The notes under the pieces: model-generated
Databases searched by the model: none
What the model was told of the DNA's origin: nothing
Seen by the model: the letters and a program-made list of their open reading frames with translations, nothing else
Position numbers and translations under genes: made by a program
Shown: positions 3,583 to 61,189 of the stretch, in pieces
How positions within the stretch are numbered: the first letter of the stretch is position 1
How the letters are laid out: each line of letters begins with the position of its first letter
Origin: Stegostoma tigrinum
Taxonomy: Eukaryota
Length of the DNA stretch: 64,000 nucleotides
Assembly (NCBI RefSeq): GCF_030684315.1
Contig: NC_081394.1
Span: 6,306,658-6,370,657, forward strand
Direction of reading: 5' to 3'

Positions 3583-3957
3583 GTGAGTTGATTCAGATGT
3601 CAACATCTCGCAGGTTGACACACACACACACACACACAGACATTACAGGAATACAAATTTCAGATTAAGAGGATACCGTACTTTGGTGAATTTATTTGTA
3701 CTGTGTATCACATTAATCTGGCAATATTGTAAATCTCATGGAGTATGATATTATATCGGTTGCTACTGTCAAACATGCCTTGGTCCAAGCTTGCAAGCTG
3801 TTTTCAATATGTCACAGAGTTCAGTTCATGAATTCAGAGTCAGTTTGAGTTTGCGTCAGTTAGACAGTTCACGAGAGTGGAAAAACAAGAGACAGCAAGA
3901 CAGAGAGTGAGACAGAGAAAGAGTGTGACAGAGTGAGAGAGAGTAAAATCAGGCTTG

Positions 3958-4084
3958 ATTCCAACAATGAGCTGTGGTTGCAGACTTCTCACATTATATC
4001 CAGGGAGACTGGAGATTCAGTGCTTGGCAGCGAATGAACATGGATTAATGGAGGGTTTCATACATGAGTGTACACAGCCTTCAA
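3958..4084 (+). pseudogene. Truncated remnant of the 282-nt C2 exon cassette (3' half)
   Basis: ttccaacaatgagctgtggttg...cagggagactggagattcagtgcttggcagcgaatgaacatgg aligns with the exon at 3301 but has deletions; followed immediately by a CR1. Confidence 0.8.
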
Positions 4085-14314: not shown

Positions 14315-14411
14315 GGAGAGACTCTAACAAATGGAAAGTGGGATTGGGCATGACTGGAATCATGTTGAATGTTTTCCTGGCTGGAATATTAATCTTCCTG
14401 TATGTGCGAAA
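14315..14411 (+). CDS. Gene A transmembrane exon (97 nt)
   Basis: tttatag|GG AGA GAC... to CGA AA|gtaagt; GRDSNKWKVGLGMTGIMLNVFLAGILIFLYVRK. Confidence 0.9.
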
Positions 14412-14697
14412 GTAAGTGGAGATGCTTCGTTTGATTTACTCTAAGTTTTTACTTCCACTTTCATTGCCTCAGTCAATAACTGTTACTTTGGGGTGACGTA
14501 CCAGACATTTCTGTACGTGATTCCTATGTCCTCATGATCCAAAGCAGACCTTTTATTTGTTCTGCATCCAGATGAACAGCTATGAGTTATTGTAATCTGT
14601 AACATGCCTGATAGGGAGGTGAAAGTGGATCCAAACATGTAACTGTATCTGTGCTGCACTGAGTCTCTGATATACAATAACTACAGTGATATTGCAG

Positions 14698-14779
14698 GAG
14701 AAAGACAGCGACTGAGGAGACAGCATCAAAGACCAATGAGATTGAATTGACCTACAGTCAACTCTCTGTGAAACACCAG
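14698..14779 (+). CDS. Gene A cytoplasmic exon 1 with ITIM (82 nt)
   Basis: ttgcag|G AGA AAG... to CAG|gtacag; KRKTATEETASKTNEIELTYSQLSVKHQ; phase 2 to 0 bridges the TM and terminal exons. Confidence 0.85.
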
Positions 14780-15044
14780 GTACAGAAGCTGTTTATACTC
14801 ACTCCAATCAATTAATTTCAGGGAATAAACAGCACAGCACATTGCAATCATCAAGCCCAGGGATGTTCTCTCCACTAGTAATAACTTCTTAAAGCCGCCA
14901 AACAGTAACAGGACAGTGTATAGAGACAAGGACCAGAATGGACACATCAGATTAGAAAGGTTTGATGTTTGTGTGCAGCCAACATGGTTGAATATGCAAC
15001 GTGTCCCAGATTCCAAGAGAGACTACCCATGGATTCCCACTTGT

Positions 15045-15490
15045 AATGGCTCAGTCGGAAGCTCTCTCAGTTGCCCTTTTTCTGAGTCAGAAGGTCATGG
15101 ATTTGATAACTAACTGCACTAATTTAAACATAACCTAACGGTGCTGACATTTTGGGATGTTTGTTCTGGGGGAGTGCTGGACTGTCAGAGGGTCAGTACT
15201 AAGGATGCTGACCCTGTTCTGAAGAAGGGTCATTGGACTCAAAAAAAGTAAACTGCTTTCTCTTCACAGCTGCTGCCAGACCTCCTGAGTTGCTCCAATA
15301 ATTTCTTCTAGTGTTGTTTCAGACTTCCAGCATCGGCAGTTCTTTGTTTCACTGTTCAAAAGTTGGTTGATTTCACTGTTAATTGTGTTCTCGCTTGTGA
15401 GACCTTTTTGTGCACAAATTGCTTCTGCACATCCTACACTACAACAGTGAACACTTCTAAAAGGTTCTGGCTCTGAAGGGGTTTTTGAAC
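15045..15490 (+). mobile_element. DeuSINE (SacSINE1-like) remnant interrupted by a Penelope-derived fragment
   Basis: tRNA-like head ggctcagt...tctgagtcagaaggtcatgg, then ggagtgctggactgtcagagg and tail tgtgcacaaattg...cctacactacaacagtga; family assignment from recall. Confidence 0.55.
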
Positions 15491-16250
15491 TTTCCGCATG
15501 AGGGAAGAAGAGAGCTCAAATGCAGATTGGAGAGTCAAACTATAAAATTGTGTATTAGAGGTGAGAAACAGCAAAACAAGGGAAATAGCGAGAGAGAGAG
15601 AGGCACAAAGAAAGTGATGATGGAGGGTACAGAGAGAGAGGGAGATAGGGAGAGAGAGATGGAAAAGGTTAAATCCAATAAACCATGAGGCTATGTAATA
15701 ATTTAACCCAAGATGTGCCAGTGAGTTACGTATCTTCTGTTTCCATTTCTCTGACTGGAAGTCTGTGCTGTTAGATGATTAGATGATAAATTAAACCATT
15801 CCATCTGCCCTGTGCAGTGAGGAGTGCCGGGGTGGGTGGGAGGGGGGGGGGGGGGAGGTGGTGTTACACAGCCCACGGCCTCTACCTGGAAGAGAAGCAG
15901 TGAGCAGTTCTCGGTTAGCATCCTGGAGCCTTTCATTACCTTCCCCCTAAACAAAACAGAATACCTCACATCAATATTGTTTTCATTCGAATACTGCTGT
16001 TGGGAGATTTGTTGTATGCAAATTCGTTGCTGCAGTTGTTGATGTAATGTAGGAAACACTGTTCAAGTGTCGTGGGAGCATTCGGGACACACAGTCTCTG
16101 TGAACAATGAGCTCATCACTTTTGCCTTCAAGGTACAAGAAGGTTAAACCAAACACACCACGACTGACTCTCATTAGGCTGTGCAAGAATTTAAATCTAT
16201 CCGTGCCAGTAAATGATGCGAGAACATCTTCTGTTTCCATTTCTCCACAG

Positions 16251-16484
16251 GGTTCAGAGAACACGGTGGTTACCGACCTTCAGATCACAACCAGGGACAC
16301 AACTAGAGAGGGAGAGACATCAGGTCCCCAGGAAGTCTTTGGTGGTGGAGTGGGCGGAGATGCTGGCCACCAATATAGAATTAAAGACCTTCTCCAAGCC
16401 AACATCAACTTTCTTAAGCTACCCAGCGGTGATGAGACTGTGCAGAGGGACAAGGATACAGATTATGCACAGATCAGATTGTAG
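16251..16484 (+). CDS. Gene A terminal cytoplasmic exon with ITSM
   Basis: ttctccacag|GGT TCA... to TAG; ...DLLQANINFLKLP...DKDTDYAQIRL*, resembling CD33-related Siglec tails (ELHYASLNF...TEYSEI). Confidence 0.88.
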   Translation, partial: GSENTVVTDLQITTRDTTREGETSGPQEVFGGGVGGDAGHQYRIKDLLQANINFLKLPSGDETVQRDKDTDYAQIRL

Positions 16485-32584: not shown

Positions 32585-32692
32585 TTAAACATTCCCATAC
32601 ATGGCCTCCTCATCAAAGTTACAGTTTGCATAGATATTGTCTTCTTGGTGTACATGAATATTATGATTCAGTGTTATTTCCTCAAATTTCTT
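32585..32692 (-). CDS. Gene B terminal cytoplasmic exon
   Basis: tttctattgcag|AAG AAA... to TAA; KKFEEITLNHNIHVHQEDNIYANCNFDEEAMYGNV*. Confidence 0.8.
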   Translation of the reverse strand, partial: KKFEEITLNHNIHVHQEDNIYANCNFDEEAMYGNV

Positions 32693-33021
32693 CTGCAATA
32701 GAAACAAAAATAAGCACAGAGACATTCAGAGTAATCAGCATTTAGAATTATTAACCCCAATACAAATTATACCCAGAACAAATCCATTAATTATTTGAAC
32801 AATGTGGGGTTTGATTATAGATGCTGAACAGTATGGGGTTTGATTATCGATACTGAACAGTGTAGTGTTTGATGATTGATCCTGTGTGGTGTGTGTTGTA
32901 CAATTTCCTGGGTTCAAATTTGGTTGTGTAAATGATTTCAGAGACATGAAAGGACCAGAGACATCAGTATTAGAGCCAGTGGAGGGGGTGAGTGCCTGGA
33001 TATCCTGTGCATGTAGCTCAC

Positions 33022-33129
33022 CTTCTGGTTTCTCAAAGCCCAATCTATCTCACAGTTTTCATAAGTAGGATCTTCATGTTCATTGGCAGAATGCTTAGTT
33101 TTAGTTTCTTGTTTCATGCCCATTCTCTC
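33022..33129 (-). CDS. Gene B cytoplasmic exon 2 (108 nt)
   Basis: caatacag|GAG AGA ATG to CAG AAG|gtgagc; ERMGMKQETKTKHSANEHEDPTYENCEIDWALRNQK. Confidence 0.78.
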
Positions 33130-34863: not shown

Positions 34864-34945
34864 CCTGGACCTGTCCCACTGCTTCCCTGGAGTGTCTCTA
34901 CTGACTTGCTGACATGCTGTTTGGTCTCTTCCTGTGCTTTTTGCT
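34864..34945 (-). CDS. Gene B cytoplasmic exon 1 (82 nt)
   Basis: gcacag|A GCA AAA to TCC AGG|gtaagt; KAKSTGRDQTACQQVSRDTPGKQWDRSR; same 82-nt length and phase 2 to 0 as the gene A counterpart. Confidence 0.78.
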
Positions 34946-35746: not shown

Positions 35747-35843
35747 TTTTTCACACACTTGAAGATGAATAATCCACTCAGTCCAACGCTTAAAATGATT
35801 CCAGCTCCAAGCAATCCTGCTTTCCATCCTCTGAATTCTCGAA
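35747..35843 (-). CDS. Gene B transmembrane exon (97 nt)
   Basis: tttccag|TT CGA GAA to AAA AA|gtaagt; REFRGWKAGLLGAGIILSVGLSGLFIFKCVKK; same length and phases as the gene A TM exon. Confidence 0.9.
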
Positions 35844-36385: not shown

Positions 36386-37559
36386 TGATTGTATGAATAA
36401 CTCCAGTACCATTTTAGAATGTTGTGCTCAGAAGTAGATGTCCTCATGCTAACCTGGTGAAGTGATATCTGTCCACATGTGTAAGAGCAATACAAGGAAA
36501 GTTTATAGATATAATATTTATGTACTACATACATATACAGAATTTATATCTGTAAGAATTGTTTTCATGGAGGTGGCAAACTGATGGGGTGACACAAAGG
36601 ACTGCATAACAGCGGAAGCACTGGTCAGAGTCACGCAATCCCACAACCAACGGAAGAGAATAAAGCTCTGCAGTCCGGACACATCCACCATGAAAGTCAG
36701 AGGCAAATCAAGCAATAATTGGAGGAGGGGACTCCAGAAATACCCCATCCTCAGTGATGGGGGAGCCCGGTATATCTGTGTAAAAGGAAAGGCAAGAGAC
36801 CCACCTTGTCCCTCTCCAGAGGTTCCCAGCATCACAGATGCCAGTCTTCAGCAAATTCAATTCACTCCGCACGATGTGAAGAAATGGCTGAAGACACCAG
36901 ATACATGAAAAGGAATTGGCCCTGAGAACAGTCTGGTAATTGTTAATGGTGTGGTGACAAGAGCAGGTCAAAGGCTCGGAATGCTGCAATGAGGAACTCA
37001 CCTGCCGACTCCTGAAAATGTGTCTGTCATTCACAGGGAATGTGATGGAACACTGTCCAGTTGGCTGGATGGGTGCAGCTCCAACAACAAGAAGCTCATC
37101 CAGGACAAAGCAGCCCATTTGATTAGCACCACATCCACGCCATAGACATTTGTTTTCTCCAACACATACACACAGCAAGGGCAGTGTACGCTATTTACAA
37201 AATTCAATATGCAACTCATCAATGTTTCTTCGCCAGCACTTGCCAGATCTATGGAAGGATGATACATAGAAACACAAGTTCTCCTCCAAGTCGCTCAGAA
37301 GTGTTTTTGAAGTACGGTTTGAAGGTTAGTATTAGTTAAAAAAAAAATCTCCGGAGTGGTTAATGGGTCTGAAAGCTTTCAATGCCTCAGGCCTGATAAT
37401 GTATATCCAGGAAATGAAAGACATAGCCATGGAAACAGTGGAGTAGAAATAGGAAATTGGAAAATGTCAAATGTGACCCTGCATTTTAACAAAGCAGGGA
37501 GGGAGTAAACAGGAAATTACAGCCTAACATCAGTAACAGGGGAAATACTGGAGACTGAT

Positions 37560-42394: not shown

Positions 42395-42676
42395 ATTCCA
42401 CATTGATGGTTATGGAGCCATCCATTGCTCCATGTTCGTTCTCTGCCACACACTGATAATCCCCTGACTCCCTGTACGAAACATGAGGAATCTCCAACCA
42501 CAGTTCATTGTTGGAACTTGTTCTGTTCATTGTGACATTAAGATGTCTCCATGTCAGGTTAGAAGCGGGGAAGCTCTCGACTGAGCAGATTATGATTGCA
42601 GAATTCCCCTCAGTTATATTGATCGATGAACCTTCAATCACATGAACAGAAGTGATCAAGAGATTCCGTGGTGAGT
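42395..42676 (-). CDS. Gene B C2-set Ig exon (282-nt cassette)
   Basis: cttgtag|ACTCACCA to GAA T|gtaagt; IICSVESFPASNLTW...SGDYQCVAENEHG. Confidence 0.92.
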
Positions 42677-45239: not shown

Positions 45240-45521
45240 ATTCCACAGTGAGGCTTATGGAGCCCTGCACTGCTCCATGTTTATTCTCTGCCACACACTG
45301 ATAGTCTCCAGTCTCCCTGTACGTAACATGAGGAATGTCCAACCTCAGCTCATTGTTGGAACTTGTTCTGTTCAGTGTGACATTAAGATGTCGCCACATG
45401 AGGTTAGAAGATGGGAAACTGTCGACAGAGCAGATTATCACTGCAGAATTCCCCTCGATTATATTGATTGATGAATCATTAATTCCATCAAGGAAAGCAA
45501 TTGAGAGAGTCTGTGGCGGAT
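45240..45521 (-). CDS. Gene B C2-set Ig exon (282-nt cassette)
   Basis: gttttag|ATCCGCCA to GAA T|gtgagt; IICSVDSFPSSNLMW...TGDYQCVAENKHG. Confidence 0.92.
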
Positions 45522-47425: not shown

Positions 47426-47527
47426 TAAAACAAATTCACATACGTTGATTGTGAAGAATTGAAAGGCAGTGAGAATGTGAAATGAGTGATGTCAATTTGT
47501 TTCCTTCGTCATCAAGGCACAGACTTT

Positions 47528-50500
47528 CAGTCCTGAGGGGGTGCCATCCTATCAAAGGGTCAGTACTGACGGAGTGCCATGCTGTTAGAGGGTCAGTACT
47601 GAGGGAGTGCCAACCTGTTATAGTGTCAGCAGTGAGGGAGTTCCATCCTGTCGGAGGGTCATTACTGAGGGAGTGTCATCCTGTCGGAGGGTCAGTAAAG
47701 AGGGAGTGCCATCCTGTTGGAGGGTCAGTAGTGAGGGAGTGCCATCCTCTTAGAGGGTCAGTACTGAGGGGGTGCCATCCTGTCGGAGGGTCAGTACTGA
47801 GAGAGTGCCATCCTGTTAGAGGGTCAGTGCTGAGGGCGTGTCATCCTGTAGGAGGGTCAGTACTGAGGGAGTGCCATCCTGTTAGAGGTTCAGTACTGAG
47901 GGAGTGCCATCCTGTTAGAGGGTCAGTTGTGAGGGAGTGCCATCCTGTCGGAGGGTCAGTACTGAGGGAGTGCCATCCTGTTAGAGGGTCAGTAGTGAGG
48001 GAGTGCCATCCTGTCAGAGGGTCAGTACTGAGGGAGTGCCATCCTGTCGGAGGGTCAGTACCGAGGGAGTGTCATCCTGTCGGAGGGTCGGGACTGAGAC
48101 ATTGCCATCCTGTCGGAGGGTCAGTAGTGAGTGAGTGCCATCCTGTTAGAGAGTCAGTACTGAGGGAGTGCCATCCTGTCGGAGGGTCAGTACTGAGAGA
48201 GTGCCATCCTGTTAGAGGGTCAGTACTGAGGGAGTGTCATCCTGTTAGAGGGTCAGTGCTGAGGGAGTGCCATCCTGTCGGAGGGTCAGTGCTGAGGGAG
48301 TGCCACACTGTTGGAGGGTCAGTGCTGAGGGAGTGCCACACTGTTGGAGGGTCAGTGCTAGGGTTTACCACATGAAATACTCCAGCACTGTGAAGTGCCA
48401 GTGCTGACGGAGTGCTGCACTGTTGGACGTTCAGTGCTGAGGGGCTGTGATACTGTCAGAGGGCCAGTGCTGAGGGAGTGCCTCGACTGTTGGAGGGTCT
48501 ACACTGAGGGAATGGCCCATTGTCAGAGGGTCAGTGCTGAGGAGTGCTACACTGTCAGAGGATCAGAACTGAGACATTGCCGAACTGTCAGAGATTCGGC
48601 GCTGAGGGAGTGCTTTACTGTCGAAGGGTCAGCACTGAAGTTGCTGGGTTGGAGGGTTAGTACTGAGGGTGTGCCACATTCCTGGAGGGTCAGTACTAAG
48701 GGAATGCTGCCACGGCTGGAGGGACTGTACTAGGGGACTACTGCACAGTTGGAGGGCCTATACTTAAGCAGTGCCGCACTGTTAAAGGTTAAGTACTGTG
48801 GGAGTGCTGCGCTGTCAGAAGGTCAGTGCTGAAGGAGTGCTGTGCTGTCAGAAGGTCAGTGCTGAAGGTGTGCTGCAATGTCAGAAGGTTAGTGCTGAAG
48901 GAGCACTGCAATTTCAGAAGGTCAGTGCTGAAGGAGTGTTGCACTGTCAGAAGGTCAGTGCTGAAGGAGTGCTGCACTGTTAGAAGGTCAGTGCTGAAGG
49001 AATGTTGCACTGTCAGAAGGTCAGTGCTGACGGAGTGCTGCGCTGTCAGAAAGTCAGTGCTGAAGAAATGTTGTGCTGTCAGATAGTCAGTGCTGAAGGA
49101 GCGCTGCACTGTCAGAAGGTCAGTGCTGAAGGAGCGCTGCAATGTCAGAAGGTCAGTGCTGAAGGAGTGCTGCACTGTCAGAAGGTCAGTGCTGAAGGAG
49201 TGCTGTGCTGTCAGATGGTCAGTGCTGAAGGAGTGTTGCACTGTCAGAAGGTCAGTGCTGAAGGAGCGCTGCAATGTCAGAAGGTCAGTGCTGAAGGAGT
49301 GCTGCACTGTCAGAAGGTCAGTGCTGAAGGAGTGCTGTGCTGTCAGATGGTCAGTGCTGAAGGAGTGCTGCACTGTCAGAAGGTCAGTGCTGAAGGAGTG
49401 TTGCAATGTCAGAAGGTCAGTGCTGAAGGAGTGCTGCAATGTCAGAAGGTCAGTGCTGAAGGAGTGTTGCACTGTCAGAAGGTCAGTGCTGAAGGAGTGT
49501 TGTGCTGTCAGATGGTCAGTGCTGAAGGAGCGCTGCAATGTCAGAAAGTCAGTGCTGAAGGAGTGCTGCACTGTCAGAAGGTCAGTGCTGAAGGAGTGCT
49601 GCACTGTCAGAAGGTCAGTGCTGAAGGAGTGCTGTAATGTCAGAAGGTCAGTGCTGAAGGAGTGCTGCAATGTCAGAAGGTCAGTGCTGAAGGAGTGCTG
49701 TACTGTCAGAAGGTCAGTGCTGAAGGAGTGTTGCAATGTCAGAAGGTCAGTGCTGAAGGAGTGCTGCACTGTCAGAAGGTCAGTGCTGAAGGAGTGCTGC
49801 ACTGTCAGAAGGTCAGTGCTGAAGGAGTGTTGCAATGTCAGAAGGTCAGTGCTGAAGGAGTGCTGCAATGTCAGAAGGTCAGTGCTGAAGGAGTGTTGCA
49901 CTGTCAGAAGGTCAGTGCTGAAGGAGTGTTGTGCTGTCAGATGGTCAGTGCTGAAGGAGCGCTGCAATGTCAGAAAGTCAGTGCTGAAGGAGTGCTGCAC
50001 TGTCAGAAGGTCAGTGCTGAAGGAGTGCTGTAATGTCAGAAGGTCAGTGCTGAAGGAGTGCTGCAATGTCAGAAGGTCAGTGCTGAAGGAGTGTTGCACT
50101 GTCAGAAGGTCAGTGCTGAAGGAGCGCTGCGCTGTCAGATGGTCAGTGCTGAAGGAGTGTTGCAATGTCAGAAGGTCAGTGCTGAAGGAGTGCTGCACTG
50201 TCAGAAGGTCAGTGCTGAAGGAGTGCTGCACTGTCAGAAGGTCAGTGCTGAAGGAGTGCTGCAATGTCAGAAGGTCAGTGCTGAAGGAGTGCTGCACTGT
50301 CAGAAGGTCAGTGCTGAAGGAGTGCTGTGCTGTCAGATGGTCAGTGCTGAAGGAGTGTTGCAATGTCAGAAGGTCAGTGCTGAAGGAGTGTTGCACTGTC
50401 AGAAGGTCAGTGCTGAGGGAGTGCTGTAATGTCAGAAGGTCAGTGCTGAAGGAGTGCTGCACTGTCAGAAGGTCAGTGCTGAAGGAGTGCTGCACTGTCA

Positions 50501-51592
50501 GAAGGTCAGTGCTGAAGGAGTGCTGCACTGTCAGAAGGTCAGTGCTGAAGGAGTGCTGCAATGTCAGAAAGTCAGTGCTGAAGGAGTGCTGTAATGTCAG
50601 AAGGTCAGTGCTGAAGGAGTGCTGCACTGTCAGAAGATCAGTGCTGAAGGAGTGTTGCACTGTCAGAAGGTCAGTGCTGAAGGAGTGCTGCACTGTCAGA
50701 AGGTCAGTGCTGAAGGAGTGCTGCAATGTCAGAAGGTCAGTGCTGAGGGAGTGCTGCAATGTCAGAAGGTCAGTGCTGAAGGAGTGCTGCACTGTCAGAA
50801 GGTCAGTGCTGAAGGAGTGCTGCAATGTCAGAAGGTCAGTGCTGAAGGAGTGCTGCACTGTCAGAAGGTCAGTGCTGAAGGAGTGCTGCACTGTCAGAAG
50901 GTCAGTGCTGAAGGAGTGCTGTGCTGTCAGATGGTCAGTGCTGAAGGAGCGCTGCAATGTCAGAAAGTCAGTGCTGAAGGAGTGCTGTAATGTCAGAAGG
51001 TCAGTGCTGAAGGAGTGCTGCGCTGTCAGAAGGTCAGTGCTGAAGGAGTGCTGTAATGTCAGAAGGTCAGTGCTGAAGGAGTGCTGCACTGTCAGAAGGT
51101 CAGTGCTGAAGGAGTGTTGCGCTGTCAGAAGCTCAGTGCTGAAGGAGTGCTGCGCTGTCAGAAGGTCAGTGCTGAAGGAGTGCTGCACTGCCAGAAGGTC
51201 AGTGCTGAAGGAGTGCTGCACTGCCAGAAGGTCAGTGCTGAAGGAATGTTGCGCTGTCAGAAGGTCAGTGCTGAGGGAGTGCTGCGCTGTCAGAAGGTCA
51301 GTGCTGAAGGAGTGATGCGCTGTCAGAAGGTCAGTGCTGAAGGAGTGCTGCGCTGTCAGAAGGTCAGTGCTGAAGGAGTGCTGCACTGCCAGAAGGTCAG
51401 TGCTGAAGGAATGTTGCGCTGTCAGAAGGTCAGTGCTGAGGGAGTGCTGCGCTGTCAGAAGGTCAGTGCTGAAGGAGTGATGCGCTGTCAGAAGGTCAGT
51501 GCTGAAGGAGTGCTGCGCTGTCAGAAGGTCAGTGCTGAAGGAGTGATGCGCTGTCAGAAGGTCAGTGCTGAAGGAGTGCTGCACTGTCAGAG
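47528..51592 (+). repeat. ~4-kb 33-bp minisatellite array with two homogeneous sub-blocks
   Basis: gagggagtgccatcctgttagagggtcagtact (47530-48360), a degenerate linker, then gaaggagtgctgcactgtcagaaggtcagtgct (48800-51590). Confidence 0.97.
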
Positions 51593-51796
51593 TGCCTGTA
51601 CTGACTGTACTGCTGTGTGAACAATTCGTGCTGAGGATTGTGCTGCAATGTTAGAGTGTTGGTATAAAGGGAGTGCTGCATTGCTGGAGTATTATTAGTG
51701 TCTCCTACTGCAGTAAAGGAGGATTAGTTCTTAGGGACAGCTATATTGCCACAGGGTCAGTACTGTGCAATCATTGGTCTTTCAGAGAGTACTTAC

Positions 51797-52090
51797 ATTG
51801 CACTGTGAGTATGTGCATCTGCTCTGAAGAAACAGTTGGATAACTCAGTCTGCAAGTGAGAGTTTGCCCCTGGTCTCTGAGTGATGGTGTCAGGGCCAGA
51901 ACAGAAGTATAGGTCAGAGTGGCACCATGCTGAGTTACAGTGTTTGAGACTGATCCATGTACGGCAGTGGGAGTGTCCCAGGTTAAGGCAGGAGCGGTTC
52001 CAGTGCATGTTGTGTTGAAGATGCAGTTTAGCCTCACACGCTTTCCTGCGATAATTTCCACAGGGGCTACCGTGGGTTTATCCGTGAAAT
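51797..52090 (-). CDS. Gene B Ig domain 2 exon (294 nt)
   Basis: gttttag|AT TTC ACG GAT AAA CCC to CAA T|gtaagt; DFTDKP...LNCIFNTTCTGTAPALTW...TSVLALTPSLRDQGQTLTCRL; carries the extra inter-domain Cys typical of Siglec D2. Confidence 0.93.
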
Positions 52091-52741: not shown

Positions 52742-53107
52742 CAGAAATGTGAAGCTGGGTTCTTGGAAAGTAGCTGTAACTATTCACTTTGTCAAATTCT
52801 ATTCTAAAGTGATAAGATCCTGCATCTTCCCTCTTGATGGTGTTTATAATCAGAGAACAGTCCCCATTTTTCAGGTCTCCAGACAGCCATGTCCTACTTT
52901 GGAACTGTTGGGACTCTTTCTCATGATGGTTGGAGTGAAAAGCTATCAATGATGTTCCAGATCCTCCCTCTTTGTTCCAGATTCCAATTCGTGGTTGGTT
53001 TGACACATGTGAAGGGTAACTGTAACGACATGGAATCTGAGCACAGGAACCTTCCTGCGCTGTCACCTCACGTGGACCGTGGAGTTTCCAGTCTTGTGCC
53101 AGTCCAG
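52742..53107 (-). CDS. Gene B V-set sialic-acid-binding Ig exon (366 nt)
   Basis: ctcctcag|CT GGA... to TCT G|gtaaat; QDWK, GSCAQIPCRYSYP (two Cys), GDCSLII (E-strand Cys), DAGSYHFRIEF (F-strand essential Arg), NSYSY; all are Siglec V-set hallmarks. Confidence 0.95.
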
Positions 53108-59450: not shown

Positions 59451-59490
59451 CTTGGAGAAGTGACAGAAGGAAGTAAGATTTCCCGATCAT
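59451..59490 (-). CDS. Gene B signal-peptide exon
   Basis: gcaacaATG ATC GGG AAA TCT TAC TTC CTT CTG TCA CTT CTC CAA G|gtaatg = MIGKSYFLLSLLQ; phase 1 joins the V exon to give ...LLQAGLAQDW; an acceptor (tactttcag| at 59532) suggests an upstream UTR exon; an in-frame upstream ATG at 59511 is an alternative start. Confidence 0.8.
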
Positions 59491-61189
59491 TGTTGCTCCC
59501 AGATATTTCATCAACTTTTCCTTCACGAGCTCTGAAAGTAAATGTACCTCACTTCTTGTCCAACAGCTCTCAAGTGATCCGAACTCCTTTTAGACATTGT
59601 CCTTACAGAGCACGTTGATTCTCTGAGCGTTCAAGGCTTCAAAAAAAAAGCATGTTCCAAAAATTATGTTTCTGCATTTCTCTCATCCTTTGAACAAGAA
59701 AGAAGTCTTATTCTGAGATAGACTTTAGCACCCCTTCTCCATCAGATCTTAATTATAAATTGAAATCTTTGAAAGGCAACTGTCATTATAATCTGTCTTC
59801 ACAAAGTCCCAATATCAGCAAAGGATGATGTTGGCCATGGGAGTGAATTCAAATCATTGTGTTGCTGACCCAGGACCTGCCCAACTGCTTGCCAGGGCGG
59901 TGACTACTGACACAATCTGCATATCATGATTGGCCTCTTCGTGGGCTACGTCCGTTAGTTTCAATAGAAGGAGTTGATGTTTCACTGTGAGTCAATTCAG
60001 GAAGTTGGTTTGATGTGAGAAAGCAGCACTATAAGCTGGCTCCATAAGAAAAATATTAATCTTTGGACTGCAGCTCATTTTCTTGTGTAGCAAACCCAAG
60101 GGACAGATTGGGCATCATCTCACTCTTGTGTAATATACTGGAAGGGACTGAATGGCCTCCTTTTTTATGTGTAACAGACTTGAGGTGGGGGCTGAAAGGA
60201 CCTCCTCATGTTCCTGTGTAACAGGCTTGGGGACTGAATAATCTCCTCTGTCTCTGTCTAACAGGATCCAGAGGATCAAAGATACAAAGAGAGAGAGGTT
60301 TCTATATATGTATATTTCACTCTGCAGCCTCAGATCCATCTCTTACATCTGCTGAAAAGAAACTGGTAGAAATAGCAGGTTGTTTGTCTGGTATTTGTCT
60401 GCTGAATTATGTTTTTGCATGTTTTGTGATTGTAAGTGATGATTCATCTCCAACATGTAAAGACTGTCCTCATGGTGTAAGTGAAATAGACTGCGAGGAA
60501 CTTCGCATTCCTCTGAGGGATGTTCTGTCTGACCACTTAAGTTGCCCTGGGAAAAATGTTGCTTTCACCTCAGACTGTCTCTTGTTTCATCTACATTGGC
60601 TTCATGAAACTTGTCAAAACTGAATGGATCAGGTGATTGCTGTAGCCATTTTATGTCAGTGCTTTAGTCATGTTTTCAAATAATTTGAGGGCAGGGACTC
60701 CCAAGGTGCTCATAAGGTGATGAAATTTAATGATAATAGTCTGTATCTGATAACACTGTGGCAAGTGTAAACATTAGCATGGAGCAGATGGACTGAATGG
60801 CCTGTTTATGCCCGCAGACAGCACATTAATGTATAGATCCATTTAAGAGTAAGCATTTACTGATTTTATACTTGCTGATGGGCCTGTCTCTGAACTTATT
60901 TCACTTTTTGTTGGAGAGCCTTGCATTGACCAGCACTGGTCAGGGGAAAACAGTAGCTCACAGCTTGGGGACAAACTGGCACATTAGATTCTCAAAATCA
61001 ATTCCCAAATAACTGCTGTCCACAACAGGACAGGAATTTTTTGAAATCATCCCTGAACTAGCACCCAAAACATATGAACACCTGTTGCTGTTTGTGGGAA
61101 TTTACCGTGCAGCACTTAGCTGCTACAACTCTCACCTTACAACATTTGAAAAATCACTTTATTGTCTGCAAAGTTTACAGGGATATTCT

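Follow-up and report, generated by a model that had tools for sequence, protein, structure and literature searches.

A zebra shark Siglec-type gene with an ITIM-less tail of YxN motifs, predicted to dock Grb2-family adaptors

Introduction

Signalling Siglecs were divided into ITIM and DAP12 types in a review of the family, which also describes Siglec-5/14 and Siglec-11/16 as pairs with related ectodomains and opposite tails encoded in one cluster (PMC13358205). The activating members of these pairs are short-tailed and use DAP12. CD22 (Siglec-2) is reported to recruit Grb2 directly through a non-ITIM tyrosine (Y4), with an inhibitory outcome (PMC5302901). Its tail has six tyrosines and three ITIMs, with one Grb2 site.

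Grb2-family SH2 domains recognize pYxN (PMC6669380), and without N+2 the affinity of the Grb2 SH2 domain drops at least 100-fold (PMC12521615). The ITT receptors DNAM-1, CD28, DAP10, and membrane IgG are described as binding the Grb2 SH2 domain through pYxN and as serving activation or costimulation; DNAM-1 activates NK cells via pYxN, for which N+2 is needed and +3 is not, and ITT motifs with M+3 bind p85 too (PMC4647266). Each is described as carrying a single motif, and none has a V-set domain that binds sialic acid. The adaptor LAT has three pYxN sites for cooperative Grb2/Gads binding, at least two of which are required for stable Grb2 recruitment (PMC6669380). It has almost no ectodomain and carries a PLC-gamma site. 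LAT also contains a CxxC motif, and NTAL likewise has three pYxN sites of the LAT kind.

Built-in activating tails or YxN motifs have been reported in CEACAM3-like paired receptors, marsupial CEACAMs, prolectin, and catfish IpLITR 1.1b (PMC2832619, PMC2709368, PMC4810170). These belong to other families, and in the CEACAMs and IpLITR, as these sources present them, YxN accompanies an ITAM, ITAM-like motif, or ITIM and does not replace it. The literature searched, which covers few subscription journals, yielded no description of an ITIM-less all-YxN class of Siglec tails or of shark Siglec tails; Siglecs receive a single mention in the available main text of the whale-shark genome paper, and the teleost label si:dkey-238d18.5 (see below) appeared only in papers of unrelated title. 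Here we describe a Siglec-type gene (gene B) that carries such a tail.

Structure of gene B

The analyzed window is a stretch of 64,000 nt of Stegostoma tigrinum contig NC_081394.1 (positions 6,306,658-6,370,657, forward strand), and coordinates below are positions within it. Gene B lies on the minus strand. Its signal-peptide exon (59451..59511; 20 codons plus 1 nt) has an N-terminus matching models XP_059497215.1 and XP_048476476.1. It is followed by the V-set exon (52742..53107; Pfam V-set 3.9e-14, Ig_CD22 1.1e-9), with a YxFR arginine and the Siglec cysteine pattern, by Ig exon 2 (51797..52090; Pfam C2-set_2 4.8e-10), and by Ig exons 3 (45240..45521) and 4 (42395..42676), which are 82%–86% and 81%–85% identical in nucleotides to Ig exons of gene A, a paralogue in the same window. 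The transmembrane (TM) exon (35747..35843; 97 nt, phase 1-2) encodes a core without Lys or Arg, as the preliminary description of this DNA had reported, and a juxtamembrane Cys. Three cytoplasmic exons follow: an 82-nt exon without Tyr (34864..34945, phase 2-0), whose positional counterpart in gene A bears an ITIM; a second exon (33022..33129), a probable duplicate of the last one; and the coding part of the last exon (32585..32692).

From the V-set exon to the stop codon, eight exons form a single open frame with AG/GT at all junctions. According to the exon phases, the frame of the tail hinges on the 82-nt exon (34945-34864), the skipping of which would shift it. Pfam matches and frame joining give a type I layout with a signal peptide, four Ig exons, and a TM segment. 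A long tandem repeat in the second intron of gene B (47473-51650) gives rise to long, repetitive open frames on either strand.

The RefSeq zebra-shark model XP_059497215.1 has a V domain and a 103-aa tail identical to those of gene B. The gene models disagree upstream of the tail, since this model omits Ig exons 3 and 4 and apparently uses a 15-nt microexon near 36885 (about 36887-36873, minus strand) plus an internal TM acceptor; the exon skipping reflects either an error of prediction or a shorter isoform. The same disagreement speaks in favor of the view that the tail exons are themselves wrongly predicted or are a relic in decay. Such a view is very improbable, given the identical tail in this model, the whale-shark model XP_048476476.1, which has the same four-Ig chain and 80% identity over TM and tail, and the conservation of the motif in 9 shark species and 5 ray proteins. 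As judged from gene models and sequence, gene B is intact and of the Siglec type.

Siglec-type ectodomain

The top 17 PDB matches of the V exon were all Siglecs, with sialoadhesin, CD33, and Siglec-5 scoring best. The YHFR motif of gene B aligns to YNFR of sialoadhesin, the arginine of which is R97, and to YFFR of CD33; the three V-set cysteines line up with those of sialoadhesin and CD33, and a C2-set_2 domain comes next. By these sequence criteria gene B is a Siglec, and sialic acid binding is predicted. Its four Ig domains set it apart from transmembrane adaptors such as LAT and NTAL, which have a very short ectodomain, and the 103-aa tail and uncharged TM core from DAP12/FcR-gamma-coupled Siglecs, which have a short tail and a basic TM residue.

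Tyrosine motifs of the tail

The tail contains only three tyrosines, all within YxN: YENC (33063-33052) in the second cytoplasmic exon, and YANC (32632-32621) and YGNV (32599-32588) in the last exon, separated by a 7-residue spacer and followed by the TAA stop codon (32587-32585). The three minus-strand motifs and the arrangement YANC-x7-YGNV-stop recognized in the preliminary description are therefore present. An all-YxN tail was reproduced in 0.00041 of 200,000 shuffles of the tail.

None of the three tyrosines fits the ITIM pattern [ILVS]xYxx[LV]. With respect to the ITAM (consensus in PMC2832619), the x7 spacer falls within 6-8 residues and an acidic residue (D at -3) precedes the first Tyr of the pair, while the +3 residues are C and V and not the L/I expected at both sites. 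The YxN with conserved Asn+2 typical of ITT-like motifs is present. PxxP was absent from the tail. Pfam gave no match for one of the tail exons and for the other only LsmAD, an identity that we rejected since the score was below the Pfam cut-off. In the ESM Atlas, TM plus tail reached a best feature score of 0.81 and a best TM-score of 0.33, which is at chance level.

Distribution of the tail in sharks, rays and teleosts

Seventy shark and ray relatives were sorted by their TM signature into 30 ITIM-type, 21 gene-B-type, 5 short-tailed Arg-TM, and 14 unsorted proteins. Removal of 2 duplicates and of 4 models without the last-exon module left 15 gene-B-type proteins from 9 shark species, including a sawshark. 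The filter demanded a terminal YxN, the four dropped tails have no homologous exon, and one model was trimmed after its motif. A search with the tail alone returned 4 shark proteins among 30 candidates and was therefore too insensitive to define the taxonomic range. A wider search on 50%-identity representatives, covering 23 of 139 new matches, found the module in five ray proteins, described below, and a similar tail in a goby protein. The relatives of the goby protein made up the teleost set (the 120 matches listed out of 233), in which 7 unnamed proteins were left out and 111 had a TM segment; being close kin of one query, these proteins give non-independent counts.

The module Y-x-N-C-x7-Y-x-N-x-stop occurs in the 15 non-redundant shark proteins, and five ray proteins have it as well, on a different TM segment (shark-ray profile probability, 98%). 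In sharks, the penultimate site has Y in 15/15 and both N+2 and C+3 in 14/15 (W+3 once); at the last site, N+2 is present in 15/15 and +3 is V, I, or L in 13/15, with K and T in the other two. The module encoded by the last exon (YANC-x7-YGNV type) is the conserved core of the class, and an additional exon of the YENC type was present in 8 of the 15 tails, with the motif broken in two of these eight. YxNx-stop terminates 93 of the 111 named teleost relatives with a TM segment among the matches listed, all 93 of which have a second YxN. Without selection on +2, the teleost matches listed have N+2 at the last Tyr in 98/100, at the penultimate Tyr in 98/99, and in a third Tyr column in 49/63. The conservation of Tyr and Asn+2 that the preliminary description had set as a test was thus found in sharks, rays, and teleosts.

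The lack of Lys or Arg in the TM core extends to all 16 shark YxN-class proteins and all 5 rays, with exceptions in 2 of 93 teleosts among the matches listed. A juxtamembrane Cys, possibly a palmitoylation site, is present in 16/16 shark YxN-type proteins, 3/5 rays, 67/93 of the teleost matches listed, and 12/29 ITIM-type proteins. The teleost family (si:dkey-238d18.5, with labels MAG-like, CD22-like, sialoadhesin-like, and Siglec-13/14) shares with the shark class the V-set arginine, identified by pattern in 87/93 of the matches listed with 6 unmatched, an uncharged TM segment, and two or three terminal YxN. It differs in having M or V instead of C at +3 and a variable spacer, modally of 8 residues. 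Shark and teleost tail profiles matched with an hhalign probability of 75% (E 2.6e-5), which lends weak support to a common origin; since the likeness is modest and driven by the motifs, convergence could also account for it.

The preliminary description had proposed a degenerate ITAM as one reading of the tail. In such a reading, or with another tandem-SH2 site, the last two tyrosines would be jointly engaged by Syk/ZAP-70, SHP-2, or p85. The spacing part of it held: the Tyr-to-Tyr distance is 11 (spacer x7) in 15/15 sharks, 10-11 (x6-8) in 5/5 rays, and 10-12 (x6-8) in 67/93 of the teleost matches listed, 12/15 sharks have the acidic D three residues before the first Tyr, and +3 is mostly apolar. 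The ITAM itself did not, for its strict form is present in 1/93 of the teleost matches listed and in none of the 15 sharks and 5 rays, the first +3 being C or W in 15/15 sharks. The tail is not an ITAM despite its fitting spacing, because the L/I pair is almost never found at +3. Moreover, 26/93 of the teleost matches listed have a spacer outside 6-8, and the best-kept position is N+2, which ITAMs do not require, so that joint engagement of this kind is unlikely.

Yxx-hydrophobic motifs are sorting signals of the AP-2 type, and the tail might mainly serve to take up sialylated cargo and signal little. The +3 of the terminal site would suit this role, being V, M, I, or L in 88/100 of the teleost matches listed (another residue in 12, Leu only in 2) and V, I, or L in the 13 sharks noted above, but the near-invariant N+2 at two sites and the C+3 of the penultimate site would be left unexplained, and we regard it as improbable.

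Duplication of the last exon

Internal exon duplication had been suggested for gene B on the grounds that both motif exons are 108 nt long and share H-x-E-D-x-x-Y-x-N-C. The equal length was rejected as evidence, because the last exon reaches 108 nt only when it is taken to end at the stop codon and the coding lengths differ among relatives (30-36 aa and 34-37 aa; exon limits deduced from protein alignment). The shared string reads as described in the last exon, whereas the penultimate exon has H directly before E-D, a one-residue alignment gap; the motif Tyr occupies codon 23 of one exon and codon 21 of the other. The E-D that precedes the first motif is peculiar to gene B: of the 8 proteins with that exon, the remaining 7 carry G (in six) or C (in one) at the place of D. 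The similarity of flanking introns, a gappy alignment without a null, was not used.

The duplication itself was supported by other evidence. The two motif exons of gene B align better than shuffles (p 5e-4 for protein, 3e-3 for DNA), and the profile of the extra exon matched the last exon of three-motif genes with E 2e-4 and of two-motif genes with a probability of 88% and E 3e-6. Pairwise similarity reached p<0.05 in only 3 of 8 genes, and in only 1 of 8 with the motif excluded; the pre-motif part of gene B alone gave p 0.13. An old duplication of the last exon is likely on these sequence comparisons, which draw largely on the motif region. Tail-exon duplication occurs in the inhibitory class too: in Carcharodon P0023 and P0040, ITIM-type tails are tandemly duplicated.

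Gene A and the paralogous cluster

Gene A, on the plus strand and convergent with gene B, has paralogous 97-nt TM and 82-nt exons, and its Ig exons are 81%–86% identical in nucleotides to Ig exons 3 and 4 of gene B. Its TM and tail exons (14315..16484, comprising 14315-14411, 14698-14779, and 16251-16484) encode the ITIM LTYSQL and a terminal TDYAQI. By its motifs, gene A is the inhibitory-type (ITIM) paralogue of gene B. In its last exon (16251-16484), the LLYANI of most ITIM-type relatives is changed to LLQANI, with loss of this Tyr; LTYSQL and TDYAQI are kept. A broken partial Ig exon lies within gene A beside a LINE-like element (3951-4062, plus strand). On the minus strand, a V-set exon with a frameshift and a stop (63129-62819) and, about 400 bp upstream of the ATG of gene B, a degenerate duplicate of the 82-nt exon with its intron (about 59911-59743; 72% nucleotide identity) are probably remnants of a decayed paralogue.

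A tree of 37 rows and 56 columns was built from the TM plus juxtamembrane segment, with all Arg rows and four rows whose TM was unmatched set aside; in it, one branch with support of 100/96 separated the YxN and ITIM types. In the V+C2 tree (62 of 93 rows; unclassified tails and duplicates dropped), the YxN label takes 13 changes, at least 8 of them forced by strong branches, yet it is more clustered than in shuffles. Sawshark YxN and ITIM genes group together in this tree, and a Chiloscyllium punctatum Arg-TM/ITIM pair is nearly identical in V+C2. The ectodomains that carry YxN, ITIM, and Arg-TM tails are intermixed, a pattern known from paired receptors. The V+C2 of gene B groups with orthologous YxN genes (97/93) and the V exon of gene A lies beyond the window; for these reasons no strict A/B pair was assigned.

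Short-tailed Arg-TM Siglec-like proteins of sharks include P0026, P0027, P0050, P0054, P0063, and P0071; P0063, nearly identical in V+C2 to the ITIM-type P0062, is a classic paired receptor. The tail of Pristis P0083 ends in two Tyr motifs with Leu+3, is ITAM-like, and may represent a fourth tail type; P0210, a cluster member of P0083, was classed as ITIM by pattern.

Gene B could itself be inhibitory or dampening, with an ITIM-like terminal Tyr for SHP-1/2 or with Grb2 recruiting SHIP-1 or PMCA as in CD22. Dampening of the SHIP-1 or PMCA type is also brought in by Grb2 in TIGIT. A loose terminal ITIM ([ILVS]xYxx[LVI]) was found in 5/15 sharks and in 3/5 rays, there is a weak likeness between the penultimate motif and the ITIM of the paralogues (D-x-x-Y-A-N-x-N-F; hhalign probability 23%, E 9e-4), and about 70% of the calcium attenuation by CD22 has been ascribed to its Grb2 site (PMC5302901). 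However, position -2 of the terminal site is Ala in gene B, as in 75/93 of the teleost matches listed, of which only 4/93 have the loose ITIM. The cluster already contains canonical ITIM-type paralogues, so a second inhibitory class would be less needed. Altogether an inhibitory role is unlikely, if somewhat less so than tandem-SH2 engagement.

Predicted function of the tail

We consider the gene B tail to be a multivalent ITT-like docking site for Grb2, Grap, or Gads, probably costimulatory, with a probability of about 0.55. Grb2-family binding as such is likely, and an activating sign, given binding, is nearly as likely. A Grb2-recruiting tail had been put forward in the preliminary description and agrees with the counts of Asn+2, which is retained in 15/15 sharks and 98/100 teleosts at the last Tyr and in 14/15 and 98/99 at the penultimate one (teleosts among the matches listed). 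A near-invariant N+2 with a looser +3 appears to fit Grb2-type docking best. M+3 occurs in 35/100 last and 59/99 penultimate sites of the teleost matches listed. YGN-type Grb2 sites are found in SIT and CD19; no papers on them turned up in the literature searched, and this precedent was given no weight.

Some observations count against this explanation. LLYANI in the shark ITIM paralogues and LHYANL in CD300A, where it acts as an ITIM, are also YxN; because YxN occurs within ITIM-type motifs, N+2 alone is no proof of Grb2. The Tyr spacing lies within the tandem-SH2 range, which Grb2 alone does not demand, and the conserved Cys+3 (14/15 sharks) has no explanation. Recruitment of Grb2 can also inhibit, as at Y4 of CD22.

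Under Grb2-type docking, ligand-driven clustering would lead a Src- or Syk-family kinase to phosphorylate the acid-flanked tyrosines. Two or three pYxN sites could then bind Grb2, Grap, or Gads and feed into Sos-Ras-Erk, Vav, and PI3K. The receptor would thereby give an activating or costimulatory signal without DAP12 or FcR-gamma, as a counterpart to ITIM-type paralogues like gene A. The third site would have been gained through duplication of the last exon and be dispensable.

Comparison with known receptors and implications

Gene B seems to resemble most an ITT-type receptor with LAT-like valency, and not an ITAM, ITIM, or DAP12-type receptor. Like the ITT receptors it has pYxN-type sites, but three of them, two at fixed spacing, together with a Siglec V-set. 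It shares with LAT the number of sites and a juxtamembrane Cys, a single one, and differs as a four-Ig receptor. With CD22 it shares the direct Grb2 binding through non-ITIM tyrosines, predicted here, and differs in having three YxN and no canonical ITIM. The preliminary description had considered such an architecture unfamiliar among mammalian Siglecs; no ITIM-less all-YxN Siglec was found in the literature searched, but recruitment of Grb2 as such is described for CD22 (PMC5302901). Grb2 binding by a Siglec is therefore already known, and what is apparently new is the ITIM-less all-YxN tail.

Compared with paired Siglecs, the gene B type is long-tailed and without TM charge. Its YxN tail marks a whole class, present in sharks, rays, and teleosts alongside paralogues of the ITIM and Arg-TM types, and counts as a third class because sharks also have the short-tailed Arg-TM type (5/70). 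Tentatively, this may be an ancestral third Siglec class of jawed vertebrates, beside the ITIM and DAP12/FcR-gamma classes, that joins a sialic acid receptor to a multivalent Grb2 scaffold of the LAT kind, survives in sharks, rays, and teleosts, and lies outside the described human Siglecs; its two- or three-site valency would be tuned by last-exon duplication, and its first motif was perhaps converted from an ITIM.

The database names MAG-like, CD22-like, and Siglec-13/14 mask the YxN class. The shark cluster of CD33-like genes shows three tail types, one of them apparently signalling via its own Grb2-type sites, and the teleost family brings the question of the YxN tail within reach of model fish. 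If binding is confirmed, the class would add a mode of Siglec activation, and its tails with two or three sites would form a natural series in which multivalent Grb2 signalling could be tested.
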